From assembly GCF_030222135.1 (NCBI RefSeq), contig NW_026988420.1:6451875-6515874 (forward strand): a DNA stretch of 64,000 nt, written 5' to 3'. This DNA comes from Aotus nancymaae. Lineage: Eukaryota. The position numbers and the translations under genes are program-made. The notes beneath the pieces are model-generated. The model did no database searches. It was not told the DNA's origin and saw nothing but the letters and a program-made list of their open reading frames with translations. This document shows, in pieces, positions 6,871 through 48,832 of the stretch (positions within the stretch are counted from its first letter, which is position 1; every line of letters starts with the position of its first letter).

Positions 6871-7250
<380 letters not shown>

Positions 7251-10061: not shown

Positions 10062-10378
10062 ACCGTGCGAGGTGGCTCACGCCTGTAATCCCAACACTTT
10101 GGGAGGCCGAGGGGGGTGGATCACGAGGTCAAGAGATCGAGACCATCCTGGCCAACATGGTGAAACCCCATCTCTGCTAAAAATACAAAAAAAAATAAGC
10201 CAGGCATGGTGGCACACGCCTGTGGTTCCTGCTACTCAGGAGGCTGAGGTGGAAGAATCGCTTGAACCCAGGAGGCAGAAGTTACAGTGAGTCAAGATTG
10301 TGCCACTGCACTCCAGCCTGGTGACACAGCAAGACTCTATCTAAAATTAAAAAAAAGAAAAAGAAAAAGAAAAGAAAA
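10062..10378 (+). mobile_element. Alu (full length)
   Basis: Starts gtgcgaggtggctcacgcctgtaatcccaacactttgggaggccgagg and ends cagcaagactctatctaaaattaaaaaaaagaaaaagaaaa. Confidence 0.9.
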
Positions 10379-10384
10379 CTATTC

Positions 10385-10988
<604 letters not shown>

Positions 10989-10994
10989 TGATGT

Positions 10995-11284
<290 letters not shown>

Positions 11285-11454
11285 TAAAACTATTCCATTT
11301 ATAGCAGAACCAAAAAGAATAAAATAACTAGGAATAAACTCAACCAAGGGGGAATAAGACTTGTACAAAACATTGCTGAAAAAAGTTTAAGAGAAATAAG
11401 TGGAAAGATATCTCATGTTCATGGATTGGAAGACAGTATTATTAAGATGTCAGT

Positions 11455-12930
11455 CTGGCGCTCCCAGTCGGCCGGCACATCTGCCGGGGACTCTTGGCCA
11501 GCAAGAGGGTTCCAACCTGAATAGGGGAGTGCATGGGGAGAAAAGAGAGAGAGATAGCAAGGTCCGGAGGGTCAAGTGAGCTTTTGCTCAAATGACAAAT
11601 TTATTTTGCATACAGTTAGTATATATATCTTTGTCCTACTTCGTTTGCAGGAATAGACACCAATATCTCATACATCAAAGGGAACAGAAAGTCCTGGCAT
11701 ACAAGCTTAGGCAGCAGATAACACAATAGTAAAATCGCATACATAATCAGATACAATCAAGTCGACCAGGTGGGTCTCATTACCAGGCTGGGGAAACCTA
11801 AAGTTAAAAAGTTAAATATGCAAGGCACCAGAGAGGCAGTAAGCCTGTTAACTGTGCAAACAGCAGTGAAAACTAAAGTTAAAAAGTTAACTATCTATGC
11901 AGGGCACCAGAGAGGCAGTAAGCCTGTTAACTGTGCAAACAGCAGTGAAAACTAAAGTTAAAAAGTTAACTATCTATGCAGGGAACCAGAGAGGCAGTAA
12001 GCCTGTTAACTGTGCAAACAGCAGTGAAGGCTAAAGTTAAAAAGTTAACTATCTATGCAGGGAACCAGAGAGGCAGTAAGCCTGTTAACTGTGCAAACAG
12101 CAGTGAAAACTAAAGTTAAAAAGTTAACTATCTATGCAGGGCACCAGAGAGGCAGTAAGCCTGTTAACTGTGCAAACAGCAGTGAAAACTAAAGTTAAAA
12201 AGTTAACTATCTATGCAGGGAACCAGAGAGGCAGTAAGCCTGTTAACTGTGCAAACAGCAGTGAAGGCTAAAGTTAAAAAGTTAACTATCTATGCAGGGA
12301 ACCAGAGAGGCAGTAAGCCTGTTAACTGTGCAAACAGCAGTGAAAACTAAAGTTAAAAAGTTAACTATCTATGCAGGGCACCAGAGAGGCAGTAAGCCTG
12401 TTAACTGTGCAAACAGCAGTGAAAACTAAAGTTAAAAAGTTAACTATCTATGCAGGGCACCAGAGAGGCAGTAAGCCTGTTAACTGTGCAAACAGCAGTG
12501 AAAACTAAAGTTAAAAAGTTAACTATCTATGCAGGGCACCAGAGAGGCAGTAAGCCTGTTAACTGTGCAAACAGCAGTGAAGGCTAAAGTTAAAAAGTTA
12601 ACTATCTATGCAAGGCACCAGAGAGGCAGTAAGCCTGTTATCTATGCAAACAGCAGTCACAAGAACAAGCACAGGAACCAGCAAATGGGTAGACAAAGTC
12701 ATAAAATGCAGAAACAGAAAATAAACACAATGTCTTCTCAGACCACATAGGTATCACCTTATCGTCTAGCAAAGTTGCTTTTAGATATCCTTTGATGTCA
12801 GTTTAACTTTCCCTGATCTTGACTGCCTCCAACGGGAAACTGTGTCCGGGCTCAAGCTCACTGTATGGTGTGGCCCAATTCCAAGGGGCTTCACATGGGA
12901 GCGATCCCCACATGTCAGTGCTACCCAAAG
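11455..12930. other. Unclassified ~1.5-kb insertion interrupting the L1 ORF2, carrying an internal 79-bp minisatellite
   Basis: The L1 ORF2 homology stops at about 11455 (...gaagacagtattattaagatgtcagt) and resumes at about 12930. The intervening sequence matches no repeat family that I recognise. Confidence 0.4.
11798..12660. repeat. Minisatellite: ~11 tandem copies of a 79-bp unit (agttaaaaagttaactatctatgcagggcaccagagaggcagtaagcctgttaactgtgcaaacagcagtgaaaactaa)
   Basis: The motif gcagtaagcctgttaactgtgcaaacagcagtgaa recurs at about 11838, 11917, 11996, 12075, 12154, 12233, 12312, 12391, 12470, 12549 and 12628, the last copy degenerate. Variant sites (gggCaccag/gggAaccag and gaaAActaa/gaaGGctaa) cycle with a 3-unit period, about 237 bp. 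Confidence 0.9.
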
Positions 12931-13699
12931 CAATCCTACAGATCCTACAGATTTAATTCTTATGAAAATTCCAATGGAAATTTTTGGAAAAATAGAAAAG
13001 TCCTTTTTAAAATTCATATGAAATCTCACAAGACTCTGAATAGCCACAACAATCTTGGAACAGAAGAACAAAGTTGGAGGACTCACACTTTCTTATTTCA
13101 AAACTTACTACAAAGTACAGTAATCAAGACAATGCGGTTCTGACATAAATACAGATATATTGACCATTGGAATAAAATGGAGACCCAAAAATATGCCCTC
13201 ACAAATATGGTCAAATGATTTTCAACACAGCTGCCGAGGACATTAAGTGGAAAAAGGATTGCCTTTTCAACAAATAGTTTTGAACGAACTGTATATTCAC
13301 GTGCAAAAGAATGAAGTTGGACCCTTACTTTTTGCCATATGCTAAAAATTAACTCAAAGTGTATCAAAAACCTAAACATAAGAGCTAAAACTATTAAATT
13401 CTTTTAAGAAAACAGGGGGAAAGCTTCATTACATTAGATTTGACAATGATTTCTTAGATATGACACCAAAAGCACAGGCAACAAGAGAAAAAAATATATA
13501 AATTGGTCTTTATCAAAATTTAAAACTTTTGTGTATCAAAGGGCACTATTCAGAGAATGAAAAGACAACTCAAAGAAGAGGAGAAAATATTCGCAGATCA
13601 TATATCTGATAGGGATTAATAACCAGAATATATAAATAACTCCTATAACTCAACAAGAATAACAACAAAATCCTAGTTAGAAAATAGTCAAGAATTCAA

Positions 13700-14145
13700 C
13701 AGCAAGTTTCCAAGATGCCGCCCAAAGGAAAAAGTGGTTCTGGAAAAGTGGGAAATGGGGAGCAGCCTCTGGGAGTGACAGGGATGACAAGAAGGCTCCC
13801 AAAGGTGGTGGGAATGCAGGAAAGGTCAGACACGTTCTATGTGAAAAACATGGGAAAACCATGGAAGCCATGGAAAAGTCAAAGTCTGGAATGAGATTCA
13901 ATGAAGTGGCCACACAATATAGTGAAAATAAAGCCAGGCAAGGGGGCGACTTGGGTTGGATGACCAGAGGGTCCGTGGTAGGACCATTTCAAGAAGCAGC
14001 ATTTGCCTTGTCTGTAAGCGGGATGGATAAGCCTGTGTTTACAGACCCACCAGTTAAAACAAAATGTGGATATCATGTTATTATGGTTGAAGGAAGAAAA
14101 TAAAATCATATGAAAGACTGAAAAAAAGAAAAGAAAAGAAAATAG
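13700..14145 (+). pseudogene. PIN4: PIN4 (parvulin-14/17, peptidyl-prolyl isomerase NIMA-interacting 4) processed pseudogene inserted in L1. CDS-like region 13714-14103.
   Basis: Intronless. ATG at 13714 gives [11 protein letters not shown]...; after a 1-bp deletion (the frame shifts from 2 to 1) and a 6-bp in-frame deletion, the translation continues [80 protein letters not shown] to the stop at 14101-14103. This is about 91% identical to the human PIN4 protein as I remember it. A short 3'UTR is followed by an A-rich tail (aaaaaaagaaaagaaaagaaaa). Both flanks are L1 ORF2. Confidence 0.85.
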
Positions 14146-27850: not shown

Positions 27851-28712
27851 AATGACTCCATCGGTTAGGGAGAAAATAAGGGAAGAGAACAAGAGTCTCC
27901 TCTGCCTGATGATCCAGAATTCTCCTGATCATCAGGCAGAGACTGGTGATCCAGTCAAGACCACCAAGGTAATAAGTCTACAAGTCTGTAAGAACCACAG
28001 TGTTACTGGGCTTAGGGTGCCTCCTAATGCAGACACAGTTGCAGTGACCAAAAACTTAGATCACAACACTTAAGTCCCTTCACACAGAAAAGTGTTGGGG
28101 TCTGTGAGAACAGCATGTCTGCTGGGGTCTCTTGACCTGCAAGAGGGTCCCAATACCTGGAAAAGAGAGTGTGCGGAAGAAAAGAATGACAGATGGCTGG
28201 GGTCTGGAGGACTGACAAGGCAATGTCCCAGTCAGCAGTTTATTTCGTGTACAGGGTCTCATTATATACTTTTCAGCCCGCAATGGCTGATGTCAAATCA
28301 TTACAACAAAGGGGAACAGAACATTGCAAGCCTGGGGATGAAGATAAAACTAGTACATAAAGATTGATCCAAAAAATCATAAAACAAACACATGACCTTT
28401 TCTACTTATAGGAATAAGATAACATTTTACAACATTTTACAACTGTCAAAGCAAGCAATAAATTTGAGGACAACAATTTCAAATGGCATGCGAATAATCA
28501 CAAGCTTCAGTGAATACTTGGTAAACAAAGTGATAAAACTAGCCCAGTACAAAAACTTCAAGAAACACAATGTCTAATAAAACCACACAGCCTTCACACA
28601 GCCATAATATTAGGTCAGTGAACCAGAAATAGACTTTTGTAATATCAAACTCCTTTCAGCTCCTTCTTTCCCTCAGCTCGACTGCTTCCAGGGGGGCGAA
28701 ACATGTCTGGGC

Positions 28713-29510
28713 TCAAACTCCATTATGGCGGAGACACTTAGGGGTCTCAACACTGGAGTGATCCCCACATTTCCCCCGTTTTGTTTTTAAATGGAGCTCA
28801 AACATTTTAAGCTGCAAACACTGGAGGGAGGAGAACACAAGGCGAAAGAGAAACGGCAGGAGAATGATAAGCAGAAGAACACAACCAGCCACGGCCAGAA
28901 TGGTGGAAAAGGATGGCAGGTGAAAACCGCGGGTCCAGGAGAACAAAGTGTTAACAATATCATGGGCGACAGTATCATCCCGCGGAAGGTCCTGGCGTGA
29001 AAAATCAATAGCATGAATTTGTTGTTGAAGTTGAAGAACATCAAGGGACAAGTTATTATGACTCCAAATACCTTGTAAATGGGCCTTGACCAGAGGCCTA
29101 CTCCATTCAGTGTCATTATAAGGTGTATTGGTTACACAAATATATTTAAAATCAACATGACCAAGTAGTAACAGGCGAGATTGCATGTTGTAAACTTTAT
29201 CCCCCAAAAGGGTAACAGTTTGTTCCAGAGCATTAAGTTTGGCTTCCAATTTCTTATCAATATCTATTTGAGTACCCATGGAGACAGAAATATTTTGAGC
29301 CAGATTGTTGACATAGGTAGCAGTTTGAACACTGTGAGCTAGACTAATTGTAGCTGTAGCAGCAGTAGCAACAGTAGAAACAATAGCCAAAATACTAGCA
29401 ATGAGCAAACCAATAAAACGTTTAGGACGGACCATAAGGTCCCGAATTTGATGGTGAATTTGCATGCTCTGTTCATCATACCAAGAACCTGTAAGGTTGA
29501 TGGGAAGCAT
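28713..29510 (-). CDS. ERV env TM-subunit ORF, uninterrupted for 265 codons from a Met (a relic; not claimed to be functional)
   Basis: The ORF reads MLPINLTGSW...RFIGLLIASILAIVSTVATAATATISLAHSVQ (a fusion-peptide-like hydrophobic stretch) ...CVTN...HLQG... then a membrane anchor ILAVAGCVLLLIILLPFLF. Its last ~19 codons run into the polypurine tract and the LTR start. Confidence 0.55.
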   Translation of the reverse strand: MLPINLTGSWYDEQSMQIHHQIRDLMVRPKRFIGLLIASILAIVSTVATAATATISLAHSVQTATYVNNLAQNISVSMGTQIDIDKKLEAKLNALEQTVTLLGDKVYNMQSRLLLLGHVDFKYICVTNTPYNDTEWSRPLVKAHLQGIWSHNNLSLDVLQLQQQIHAIDFSRQDLPRDDTVAHDIVNTLFSWTRGFHLPSFSTILAVAGCVLLLIILLPFLFRLVFSSLQCLQLKMFELHLKTKRGKCGDHSSVETPKCLRHNGV

Positions 29511-30056
29511 AACATAAGGAGGCTGATGGACAACAAGAATAGTGGGGGTCGGATAGACAGAGGAGTCCAGGCAGTTGGTAAGAGTACAAGAAGAACGGGA
29601 AATAAAATATTGTCCATTTGTATAGGTAATGTTAATAGAGCCATACAGGAGAGCATATGGAGAAGCAACACAAGCCTTAACATGATAAGCACGAGAGGAG
29701 AAAGCAGAGCTCCAAGAACCTACTCGCCAATAGCTAGGAGCTAAAGCAGTAAAGAGTCTCCAAAGAGAGGTATAAACACGGCCAGAAGAAGTGGAGAAGA
29801 TAGGAACCGGCCGACCAGCAGGAACCTGATATCAATCAATAGTGGTAGCCAGGGGGGCGGCAACAGACCAATCATAAAGGGAAAAACCCAAAGAGAGAGT
29901 TTATGTCAGGGCAGTATGTTGTTTTGGATAACAAAAATTCCAAGGGGGGGAAGGGCCAAAGGATCGATTGCTGGGAGAGCAGCAGGAACGTTCTATAACA
30001 GGAAAAGCAGGGGAAGAGACATTCCAAGATTCTTTGATACCAAGATATGACAGAGT

Positions 30057-30515
30057 TCATGCCCTAAGGATTGAAGTTTCACCCTGTAGGAGAGAGGATG
30101 GGCCTTCATAGGTAACAAGATGTTTCATACCTAATTCAAAACAAAATGGGCTGTTAGTGGAAGGAACAATGGGCAGAAAGGAGAGATGGTCAGAAAGAGA
30201 CAACTCATCCCAAATTTTAGAGGCATAGAAACACATAGGGGGACTGACCGCTTGGGCAGAGTAAGAATAAGTAGCAGTTTGAGGAGTAATATGTGTAGCA
30301 GAAGGAAAACCCAAAAGGGAAGTGTCATTAGTATATACTGGAAAGGCTGGATCAGTCCAGGTAACAAGACGAAGAACAGGAGGGTCAGGCACATAAGCCC
30401 AAAGAACTTGAGAATCAGTTGACACTTGAGCGTGGGCATTGGTTTGACATGATAAGATGGCTAGCATAGCAAGGAACAGAACAGAAGGTGTTCGAGATTG
30501 TCCATTTTCAATCAT
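30057..30515 (-). CDS. ERV env N-terminal (SU) ORF fragment with a signal peptide
   Basis: MIENGQSRTPSVLFLAMLAILSCQTNAHAQVSTDSQVLWAYVPDPPV...NDTSLLGFP... It is separated from the TM ORF by stops and frameshifts across 29510-30057. Confidence 0.45.
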   Translation of the reverse strand: MIENGQSRTPSVLFLAMLAILSCQTNAHAQVSTDSQVLWAYVPDPPVLRLVTWTDPAFPVYTNDTSLLGFPSATHITPQTATYSYSAQAVSPPMCFYASKIWDELSLSDHLSFLPIVPSTNSPFCFELGMKHLVTYEGPSSLLQGETSILRA

Positions 30516-30528
30516 CAGTCAGGAAGCC

Positions 30529-31131
30529 TCAGTGCTGAGCCATCTCATTTGGGCCCACGCTGGGAGAGGCACTCCTCGGGGTGGCGTCAGAGACGGTGAG
30601 TGTTGACAGGGGTGACGGCATCTGCGTGGTGGCTGAGGCATCAGGTAAAGACGGCAAAAGTGAGGGATGAGGCCGTTTGTGTTGCCACAGTGGGCCATGT
30701 TTCACCAAGCGTTCAGGAACCCAGATGGGAGAAGTTGCAGACCTAGGAAAAACACAAACATGTCCTCGTCCCCATATAAGGACTGGATCAGGACCATGCC
30801 ACTGGTTAGAAAGGGAATCTTTCCACAAGACCTCAGCTGTAGATGTATGCTGAGAATGCCAAAAGCGGTCAGCTGGTGAACGGCCATCAGCATCTAAAGT
30901 CAAAAAATTGAGAACATGTAGGGCATGGTTCAACCAATTGTGAGGTGACTTAATTAAAAGGGTAGAGGAAGGTTCATGACGTAATTTCTGTAAAAGAATT
31001 TTCAAAACAGAGTGAAAACGCTCAATGACTGACTCCTTGGCCCTGTGGATTGTATGGAATGCCTGTACGATGAGAGATTTGAAACTGAGAGCAGAAAGAG
31101 GCAAAAGCCTTACTGACATAAGCCGGTCCAT
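30529..31131 (-). CDS. ERV pol integrase C-terminal ORF fragment. An N-terminal IN piece also lies at about 31175-31375.
   Basis: [57 protein letters not shown]...[65 protein letters not shown]. Upstream, ...GKAFLSHFAVASAHLGEAAKDVVAHCL resembles AKDIVQHC at the IN zinc-finger start. Confidence 0.6.
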
Positions 31132-31377
31132 TGTCTGTCTTTAGAATTTTGGGAACACCTAGAATGGAAAAAACTCACAAGCAGTGAGCAACAACATCTT
31201 TAGCAGCTTCCCCCAGATGGGCAGAAGCAACAGCAAAATGAGACAGAAAAGCCTTCCCAAGAAGGCCAGGTACAAACAAGCCCAGACTGCACAGACTATA
31301 ATGAACAACGAAGACTTCAGTGACCAGACACCAACAAGCATCCACAAGCATCAAGATAATCCAGGAAAACATGGCTT

Positions 31378-31667
31378 CCTGAGATGGGGTTTTGCTCTTG
31401 TTGCCCAGGCTGGAGTGCAATGGCACAATCTTGGCTCACTGCAACCTCTGCCTCCCCTGGTTTAAGTGATTCTCCTGCCTCAGCCTCCAGAGCAGCTGGA
31501 ATTACAGGCGCCTGCCACCACACCCGGCTAATTTTTTGTATTTTTAGCAGAGATGGGGTTTCACCATGTTGGCCGGGCTGGTCTTGAACTCCAGACTTCA
31601 GGTGATCCACCCACCTCAGCCTCCCAAAGTGCTGAGATGTCAGGCATGAGCCACTGCACCCAGCCCA
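31378..31667 (-). mobile_element. Alu (minus orientation, 3' tail truncated), abutting the ERV fragment
   Basis: gagatggggttttgctcttgttgcccaggctggagtgcaatggcacaatcttggctcactgcaacc ... gtcaggcatgagccactgcacccagcc. Confidence 0.9.
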
Positions 31668-31765
31668 TTTAAACAATTTTTAAATGTACAACCCAGTAAC
31701 ATTAATTACATTGACAATGCTGTACAACCATCACCACTACCTATATTCAAAATTTTTCTGGTATT
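31668..31765 (-). mobile_element. L1 3'-end fragment (minus orientation)
   Basis: The reverse complement reads aaaattttgaatataggtagtggtgatggttgtacagcattgtcaatgtaattaatgttactgggttgtacatttaaaaattgtttaaatg, the canonical L1 3' terminus. Compare the + strand copy at 15890-15975. Confidence 0.7.
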
Positions 31766-31789
31766 TTGTTGTTGTTGTTGTTGTTGTTG

Positions 31790-32230
31790 TTTGTTGGTTT
31801 TGAGATGAAATCTTGCTCTGTTGCCCAGGCTGAAGTGCAGTGGTGCAATCTTGGCTCACTGCAACGCCCCCCTTCCCAGGTTCAAGCGATTCTCCTGCCT
31901 CAGCCTCCTGAGTAGCTGGGATTACAAGTGCACACCACCAGGCCTGTCTAATTTTTGTATTTTTAGTAGAGATGGGGTTTCACCCTGTTGGCCAAGCTGA
32001 TCTCAATTCCCTGACCTCGTGATCCACCCACTTCGGCCTCCCAAAGTGCTGGGATTACAGGTGTGAGCCACTGAGCCCAGCCTCAATGTGACTTTTTATT
32101 GTGATGTTAACCCTGATCACTTGGTTAAGATGCTGTCTCCATCATAAAGTTACCATTTTTCCCTTTCCCGGCACTGTTCATTAGAAAACAGTCATTAAGT
32201 CCAGCCACACCCAAAAAGAGAGGAGTTAGA
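31790..32230 (-). repeat. Inverted duplicate of 25807-26245: a minus-strand Alu at 31790-32085 plus segment X' at 32090-32230
   Basis: See the feature at 25807-26245. The Alu-X junction is identical, and the X body is about 90% identical. Confidence 0.7.
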
Positions 32231-32235
32231 TTCAA

Positions 32236-32650
32236 AAGACATAGAATGGCTGAATGGATTAAAAATCCAAAATCTACAATCTGCTGCCTACAAGAAACAC
32301 ACTTCACCTACAAAGATACACATAGACTGAAAATAAAGGGACAGAAAAGATATTCCACGCAAATGGAAACCAAAAAAGAGCAAGAGTAACTATAATTACA
32401 TCAGACAAAACAGATTCAAGACAAAAACTATAAAAAGAGATTTAAAAGGTCATTATATAATGATAAAGGAGTCACTACAGCAAGAGGATATAACAGTTGT
32501 ACATATGTATGCACCAAACACTGAAGCAACCAGAGATACAAAGCAAATATTATTAGATAGAGAGATAGATCCCAATACAATAATAGCTAGAGACTTTAAT
32601 GCCCCACTTTCAGCATTGGACAGATCATCCAGACAGAAAATTAACAAAGG
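32236..32650 (+). mobile_element. L1 ORF2 N-terminal (endonuclease) fragment
   Basis: ...KRHRMAEWIKNPKSTICCLQETHFTYKDTHRLKIKGQKRYSTQMETKKEQE...HYIMIKESLQQEDITVVHMYAPNTEATRDTKQILLDREIDPNTIIARDFNAPLSALDRSSRQKINK. Confidence 0.8.
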
Positions 32651-33180
<530 letters not shown>

Positions 33181-33191
33181 TAACCAACCTA

Positions 33192-33527
<336 letters not shown>

Positions 33528-41826: not shown

Positions 41827-48832
<7,006 letters not shown>

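Follow-up and report, generated by a model that had tools for sequence, protein, structure and literature searches.

The murine leukaemia viruses carry enhancer direct repeats of ~75 bp in the U3 region of their LTRs, and the U3 enhancer repeats of exogenous retroviruses probably originate through template switches and modulate transcription. For a retroviral LTR, a minisatellite in U3 is nothing unusual. Tandem repeats are common in the U3 of retroviruses, where they multiply enhancer sites (PMC3601003). The U3 of the endogenous ERV9/LTR12 contains 5-17 repeats of ~41 nt, which fall into four subtypes and carry NF-Y and GATA sites (PMC11853044). In the VNTR domains of the SVA/LAVA retroelements, too, the units form ordered subtypes and several units may be duplicated together as the array grows (PMC4432496). 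According to a recent preprint, several groups of class II ERVs were unreported in Platyrrhini until the survey that it describes (10.1101/2024.10.28.620668).

The locus compared here with these systems is an insert with a tandem array, which interrupts an L1 ORF2 in the window (the whole stretch of 64,000 nucleotides that was analysed). Judged from its alignments, the insert is a solo LTR left by an endogenous retrovirus of class II (ERVK-type, betaretrovirus-like). Our main reading, to which we give a probability of about 0.85, is that the insert is such a solo LTR, that a 79-bp segment in its U3 was amplified from one copy to 11, and that one of the steps was the duplication of a block of three units. 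The insert, its parts and its immediate borders are as follows:

11448-11453, no strand: target-site duplication, copy 1, TGTCAG (read directly)
11454-12912, minus strand: solo LTR of class II/ERVK type, 1,459 bp (assigned by full-length alignment with titi provirus LTRs and with a homologue in the window)
11454-11599, minus strand: predicted R/U5, downstream of the poly(A) signal (76-81% identity to relatives; the exact R/U5 borders are inferred)
11600-11605, minus strand: AATAAA poly(A) signal, tttatt on the plus strand (AATAAA is aligned in all related LTRs)
11620-11628, minus strand: TATA-like box TATATATA, ~23 nt upstream of AATAAA (the column is kept as ATATATATA in related LTRs)
11793-12657, minus strand: 79-bp tandem array of 11 copies, in U3 (TRF and table of units)
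11868-12104, minus strand: first 237-bp block, units 2-4, types A-B-C (identical to 12105-12341)
12105-12341, minus strand: second 237-bp block, units 5-7, types A-B-C, exact duplicate of the first (table of units)
12658-12912, minus strand: 5' part of U3, with the TGTGGGG terminus (78-82% identity to the titi LTRs of loci L004, L007 and L008)
12913-12918, no strand: target-site duplication, copy 2, TGTCAG (read directly)

Read on the minus strand, the insert starts with TGTGGGGATCGCTCCC, the TGTGGGG terminus, and ends with GGGAGCGCCAGA, i.e. with ...CCAGA. The TG of the canonical TG...CA termini is present at the 5' end; the 3' end is GA, not CA. The six bases TGTCAG stand at both edges of the insert and represent its target-site duplication. 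A TATA box is followed by a poly(A) signal, and both are aligned with the same signals in related LTRs. Counted in the orientation of the LTR, the array takes up positions 256-1120 of the 1,459, all within U3, and its end is ~165 bp upstream of the TATA box. An earlier note on this DNA had given the limits of the insert as 11455-12930. Its start is right to within one base, the true position being 11454, but its end overshoots the true end, 12912, by 18 bp.

The relatives of the insert were found by comparing it with about 20 kb around each of eight env-related genes (loci L003-L010). The entire length of the insert outside the array aligns with LTRs of the titi Plecturocebus cupreus (GCA_040437455.1), at 70-82% identity. 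These LTRs, all located by alignment with the DNA of the insert, are:

L004, 8127-8773 and 11963-12596: titi LTR pair
L008, 3887-4649 and 14276-15037: titi LTR pair
L007, 6416-7058: titi LTR
L010, 7390-7996 and 11743-12366: titi LTR pair

Against the titi LTRs, the 5' part of U3 reaches 78-82% identity and the 3' part 70-74%. More distant matches are present in L003, L005, L006 (marmoset, Callithrix jacchus) and L009, with L006 matched over the terminal regions. In L004, L008 and L010, the titi LTRs form direct pairs around gag and env genes, which are recognised by the Pfam families GP41 (env) and gag p24. In the titi proviruses, a polypurine tract, AAAAAAGGGGGAAC, stands before the 3' LTR copies, while two bases separate the 5' copies from the primer-binding site TGGCGACCACGAAGGGAC, which probably resembles the 3' end of tRNA-Arg rather than being of the tRNA-Lys type. 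The boundaries of the three LTR pairs carry 6-bp duplications, TTATAC in L004, TTTCAC in L008 and GCCTCT in L010. The end ...CCCAGA, with its non-canonical GA, is common to these pairs and to L007, and a target duplication of 6 bp is found in the insert as well as in the five related proviruses with readable duplications. The GA end and the 6-bp duplications at the titi LTR boundaries fix both the 3' boundary of the insert and the length of its own duplication. The insert is assigned to the solo LTRs of class II ERVs because it is collinear with LTR pairs that bracket retroviral genes and are accompanied by a polypurine tract, a primer-binding site and 6-bp duplications. The earlier view that the insert is unclassified is thus superseded, as alignment with the titi provirus LTRs makes it classifiable as an ERVK-type solo LTR.

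A search with the sequence of the LTR outside the repeats points to a second, more diverged copy in the window itself. This copy and the coding regions beside it are:

28093-28769 (approximate), minus strand: diverged homologous LTR, at the 3' end of a provirus remnant (BLAST and end-to-end alignment)
28713-29510, minus strand: env TM open reading frame, 265 aa (Pfam GP41, 5.6e-38)
30529-31131, minus strand: integrase DNA-binding domain (domain match, 8.5e-22)

BLAST of the window with the non-repeat parts of the LTR detected this homologue, at ~28093-28769, through a match of 76% over 95 bp in U5, and the two LTRs can be aligned end to end with their TATA and AATAAA columns in register. The polypurine tract AAAAACAAAACGGGGGAAA immediately precedes the homologue on the minus strand. 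This tract, the adjoining open reading frame for a GP41 env and the integrase domain together identify 28093-28769 as the 3' LTR belonging to a provirus remnant. In a protein search with the env sequence, the best matches had 57-84% identity and all came from New World monkeys, namely Callithrix jacchus and Plecturocebus cupreus; the next match is a buffalo protein, at 40%, and there is no human protein among the env matches. Some homologues of this env, in marmoset, carry the name 'endogenous retrovirus group K member 13-1 Env polyprotein-like', which relates them to HERV-K(HML-4)/ERVK13-1, and this name pertains to the env of the neighbouring provirus, not to the LTR of the insert.

The insert and its relatives thus appear to represent an ERV group found in New World monkey genomes. 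As the LTR pairs of the titi proviruses are 95-99% identical, these proviruses are too young to predate the split between platyrrhines and catarrhines. The human context implied by the proposal to compare copy numbers in T2T/HPRC assemblies is doubtful, since the relatives of both the env and the LTR were found in platyrrhine genomes only and the 27 full-length Alus of the window do not appear AluY-like (0 of 27 are closer to AluY than to AluSx in a comparison with consensus sequences). The window itself is thus probably of New World monkey origin, and such an origin would also account for the failure of the earlier note to recognise the family. The Alus of the window have about 84% identity to those of titi and marmoset, and the best matches of an L1 ORF1 protein search have 70-77% identity; neither figure is informative on the host lineage. 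Human resources are probably the wrong comparison for what would be a class II ERV of New World monkeys.

The insertion divides an old L1 ORF2 into two fragments:

11286-11447, plus strand: L1 ORF2 fragment upstream of the insertion (translation, with the ORF2p match running across the junction)
12919-13700 (end approximate), plus strand: L1 ORF2 fragment downstream of the insertion (aligned to ORF2p)

Excision of 11454-12918, that is of the LTR together with one copy of the duplication, leaves a continuous in-frame ORF2 reading ...GLEDSIIKMSVLPKAILQ... across the junction. The translation of the stitched frame aligns with human L1 ORF2p (PDB 8c8j, E = 6.8e-17, residues ~811-1013), and the alignment crosses the junction, so that the clean break of ORF2 by the insert, noticed earlier, is borne out. 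The junction fragment of 67 aa alone gave no match in a search of the PDB; the longer stitched query did. The LTR, on the minus strand, is antisense to the L1 ORF2, which is on the plus strand.

Searches by other routes gave the following. No family was matched in an Rfam search of 11000-13400, and exact look-ups of the proteins of open reading frames in the array, at the LTR/L1 junction and in env returned no record. An exact scan of viral contigs with a 25-mer of the unit found no match; a scan of metagenome contigs and one of prokaryote-genome contigs with a 20-mer, both also exact, found one chance bacterial match each (L001, L002). The literature on LTR13 or on HERV-K LTRs with VNTRs yielded nothing specific to the sequence of the insert. 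The observed/expected ratio of CpG is 0.39 in the LTR flanks of the array and 0.23 in the whole window, which is weakly suggestive of youth.

TRF reports one array, at 11793-12657, with a period of 79, 11.0 copies, 97% matches, no indels and a score of 1597, and the earlier count of about 11 copies of a 79-bp unit agrees with this. At the edge of the array, copy 1 (11793-11867) is degenerate: it has lost 4 bp and measures 75 bp. Copies 2-11 begin at 11868 and then follow every 79 bp. Copies 2-10, which span 711 bp, have zero private substitutions. They vary at two sites only, the same two that had been named before: 1) AA or GG at unit positions 4-5; 2) C or A at position 38. Units of type A match the consensus; those of type B differ from it by the A at position 38, those of type C by GG together with that A, and those of type D by GG and three terminal changes. 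The order of the types in copies 2-11 is A,B,C,A,B,C,A,A,A,D. The stretch 11868-12104 is identical to 12105-12341. Copy 8 opens a third block, after which the pattern ends, so that the 237-bp periodicity covers 2.3 periods (copies 2-8) and the A-A-A-D stretch departs from it.

The segment homologous to the 79-bp unit is single-copy in all five of the five closest related LTRs. The match extends over 80 bp in L008, with 81-85% identity, and over 62-70 bp in L004 and L007, with 79-82%. TRF found no 79-bp array in any of the fetched loci of the relatives. As the unit is present once in the five relatives, the array represents the expansion of a single-copy segment of U3. The units at the edges of the array keep the states of the single-copy relatives: CCTTGC is found in both copy 1 and copy 11, AGATAA is kept by the first unit in the orientation of the LTR, and TTTAGGTTTCCCC by the last. 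In the interior, all units have derived states in common. A derived interior flanked by ancestral edges is the usual signature of an array that has grown from one copy and has been internally homogenised. The absence of private substitutions from copies 2-10, as compared with differences of 2.7-5% between the titi LTR pairs, indicates that the last rounds of expansion or homogenisation were recent.

The history of the locus is then probably as follows. A betaretrovirus-like ERV would have integrated into the old L1 ORF2 in antisense orientation, duplicating 6 bp of the target. Recombination between its two LTRs would have removed the body of the provirus and left a solo LTR. The 79-bp segment of U3 upstream of the TATA box was amplified to 11 copies, and we infer that the route was replication slippage or unequal sister-chromatid or allelic exchange after integration, or else, before integration, a switch of templates while the virus was reverse-transcribed. 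One of the steps duplicated a block of three units, giving A-B-C-A-B-C, and others added single units, giving A-A-A. We lean towards growth of the array mostly after integration, because private substitutions are absent, the relatives have a single copy and the copy number is high. Copy-number (VNTR) polymorphism at the array is plausible.

Alternatively, the array might have been inherited from the virus or its family. The U3 segment would in that case have been amplified by template switching and selected as an enhancer multimer, and the consensus of the family would be multi-copy. Replicating retroviruses and ERV9/LTR12 do carry U3 arrays as a family trait, and the place of the present array, upstream of the TATA box in U3, is the normal one for enhancer repeats. 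Moreover, U3 repeats occur in the same ERV group, as the titi provirus of L009 has two nearly identical LTRs that differ by a 14-bp indel within short repeats of U3. The five related LTRs, however, have one unit each, although at 70-82% identity they do not belong to the insert's own subfamily, and 11 near-identical copies without private substitutions fit recent turnover in the genome better. We therefore consider inheritance of the array to be possible but doubtful. The same relatives bear on the suggestion that the flanks of the array might belong to a known element that already holds it: the flanks are indeed of a recognisable kind, namely LTR, but the related LTRs carry one unit.

Amplification of one U3 segment within the solo LTR, which we prefer, also has to account for the order of the units. 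The earlier note had described a higher-order periodicity of three units, or 237 bp, and a true higher-order repeat would evolve in such blocks by repeated unequal exchange. The periodicity stands for copies 2-4, which are exactly the same as copies 5-7, and a third block is begun by copy 8, but there it stops. When TRF was rerun with periods of up to 1000, it again gave a single row, with period 79, and neither 158 nor 237 bp. To assess the order, all 7,560 arrangements of the same ten units were enumerated. A tandemly duplicated three-unit block with three types occurs in 1.3% of these orderings, and a duplicated block of at least three units of any kind in 2.1%. The order of the units is thus unlikely to have resulted from randomly placed variants. 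The earlier note had held that a single period with random variants would speak against its description; the period is indeed single, but the variants are probably not randomly placed. Over the whole array, 9 of 553 positions mismatch at a lag of 237 and 17 of 711 at a lag of 79. The mismatch count at a lag of three units is equalled or bettered in 5.7% of the orderings, and in 17% when the choice of the best lag is taken into account. A multi-unit lag that performs better array-wide and over several periods, as in a higher-order repeat, is therefore not seen (p = 0.057, or 0.17 corrected). With 2.3 periods only, with copies 8-11 breaking the pattern and with one duplication sufficing to explain it, a true higher-order repeat is unlikely. 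A-B-C-A-B-C reflects a single duplication of a 237-bp block and does not amount to a sustained higher-order repeat. Duplication or exchange of a three-unit block, which had also been proposed as the way in which the array grew, explains this order best because slippage of single units would need recurrent identical mutations.

The longest direct repeat flanking the insert has 8 bp, ATGTCAGT, and consists of the 6-bp TGTCAG and one coincident base on each side. An 8-bp flanking repeat might suggest a cut-and-paste DNA transposon of the hAT type, as might the weak similarity between the two ends of the insert, with short shared motifs near both (CGCTCCCA). The homologues of the insert are, however, LTR pairs in direct orientation around gag and env, with polypurine tract, primer-binding site and 6-bp duplications, and such a transposon is highly improbable. 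It was rejected, as the ends have no terminal inverted repeats, there is no transposase, and the 8-bp repeat is made up of 6 bp and two chance bases. A composite VNTR retrotransposon mobilised by L1, in which, as in SVA, a central VNTR lies between unique flanks, one of them derived from a retrovirus, can be practically dismissed, because one and the same LTR is collinear with the array's two flanks, neither a poly(A) tail nor an Alu-like or hexamer region is present, and the duplication has 6 bp rather than being of the L1 type. The absence of a poly(A) tail and of terminal inverted repeats from the actual ends of the insert excludes the L1-mobilised composite and the hAT transposon alike.

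That the array lies in the U3 of a solo LTR accounts for its origin. Each 79-bp unit holds, on reading of the sequence, a forkhead-like string TGTTTGC, a GATA-like string AGATAG and a MYB-like string TAACAG. Multimerisation of these predicted transcription factor sites may make the LTR a stronger or a tissue-biased enhancer or promoter. A more far-reaching proposal is that the insert could stand for a subfamily of platyrrhine ERVs that is absent from the catalogues, was active recently and has unusual TG...GA termini; its array would have grown very recently, might still be growing, and would act as a lineage-specific enhancer of variable copy number near host genes; on the sequence data we regard this combination as quite improbable. 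The main value of the result lies in annotation and assembly, the array being 865 bp long with units at least 97% identical, which short reads cannot span.

Among the known systems, ERV9/LTR12 of human and other catarrhines resembles the insert in having a U3 with variable tandem units of several subtypes. It differs from it in belonging to class I (gamma-like), in its unrelated sequence and in its shorter unit, and the LTR12 array is found family-wide, whereas the present array is known from a single LTR. The U3 repeats of exogenous retroviruses are similar to the 79-bp units in length and likewise lie upstream of the TATA box. Replicating retroviruses usually have 2-3 copies of the repeat, compared with the 11 copies found here, for which an enhancer role is putative. 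The VNTR domains of SVA/LAVA are comparable as retroelement minisatellites with ordered subtypes of units that grow by multi-unit duplication; SVA, however, is a non-LTR composite that is mobilised by L1 and has a poly(A) tail, whereas the insert is a plain LTR. The class II LTRs of titi and marmoset share with the insert the TGTGGGG start, the spacing between TATA and AATAAA, the conserved U5 and the 6-bp duplication. Their closest copy has ~82% identity to the insert, which is too low for the same family and leaves the insert without a family name. These relatives, 630-760 bp in length, contain the 79-bp segment once, whereas the insert contains it 11 times in 1,459 bp.

The LTR in L1 ORF2 and its closest titi relatives share an unusual 3' terminus. 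LTRs end almost universally in ...CA; the target solo LTR (window 11454-11461) and the LTRs of the titi loci L004, L007, L008 and L010 end in ...CCAGA, a boundary that is confirmed by 6-bp duplications in three complete proviruses as well as in the target. Among the loci with more distant LTR matches, the LTRs of marmoset L006 have the canonical ...CACA end, and those of L005 terminate in ...TTTA.

Short U3 repeats also occur in a more distant titi provirus, L009, which is very young, its two LTRs being nearly identical:

7134-7772 of L009 (JBDJOS010000718.1): first LTR of the pair
10751-11398 of L009: second LTR of the pair

The L009 U3 contains tandem repeats of about 17 bp (CCTACTTAAGGGYGTAG), and within this repeat region the two LTRs differ by one 14-bp and one 6-bp indel. 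The U3 repeats are therefore unstable in the ERV group of the target. The GC-rich 45-bp tandem arrays of 6-14 copies found in titi CM080816.1 (L003 578-846, 13881-14537 and 20155-20733), close to a gene that encodes a protein with a match to Pfam NUT, are unrelated to the 79-bp array of the target LTR. That array itself gives rise to overlapping ATG ORFs of 45 aa (MQGTREAVSLLTVQTAVK...), one per unit (window 11770-12750, plus strand), which are almost certainly meaningless and which ORF finders could mis-call as genes.

The window also carries part of a class II/ERVK-type provirus:

28093-31243, minus strand: provirus remnant, with 3' LTR, polypurine tract, env TM ORF and integrase ORF
about 28093-28769, minus strand: its 3' LTR
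28713-29510, minus strand: intact env TM ORF, 265 aa (Pfam GP41, 5.6e-38)
30529-31131, minus strand: integrase C-terminal domain ORF

No 5' LTR of this remnant was found within the window, and the expected continuation of its internal region, 31381-33501, is occupied by Alus. Titi and marmoset alone supply its nearest proteins, at 57-84% identity, and relatives of the ERVs were found in platyrrhine assemblies only.

Four Alus lie back to back directly upstream of the L1/LTR site (window 10063-11283), and a second L1 is present at 43000-44900:

10063-10337, 10395-10674, 10709-10988, 11002-11283: Alus
10680-10707: (TTTAT)5.6 microsatellite among them
43616-44011: RNA-binding-domain ORF of ORF1, second L1 (Pfam Transposase_22, 1.5e-45)

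Judged against consensus sequences, none of the 27 full-length Alus in the window resembles AluY more than AluSx. Together with the ERV relatives, which were found in platyrrhine assemblies only, this points to a New World monkey as the probable source of the window, rather than human. The second L1 shares 75-81% identity with an L1 that interrupts provirus L008 of titi, and the best database ORF1 proteins are just 70-77% identical to it.

The primer-binding site of the L009 provirus, TGGCGCCC..., is presumably Lys-like. The site 3' of the 5' LTRs of L004 (8776-8793), L008 (4652-4669) and L007 (about 7061-7078) is TGGCGACCACGAAGGGAC, which we take to resemble the 3' end of a tRNA-Arg and not to be a tRNA-Lys site. 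These 'ERVK-like' elements may therefore not be 'K' by primer.
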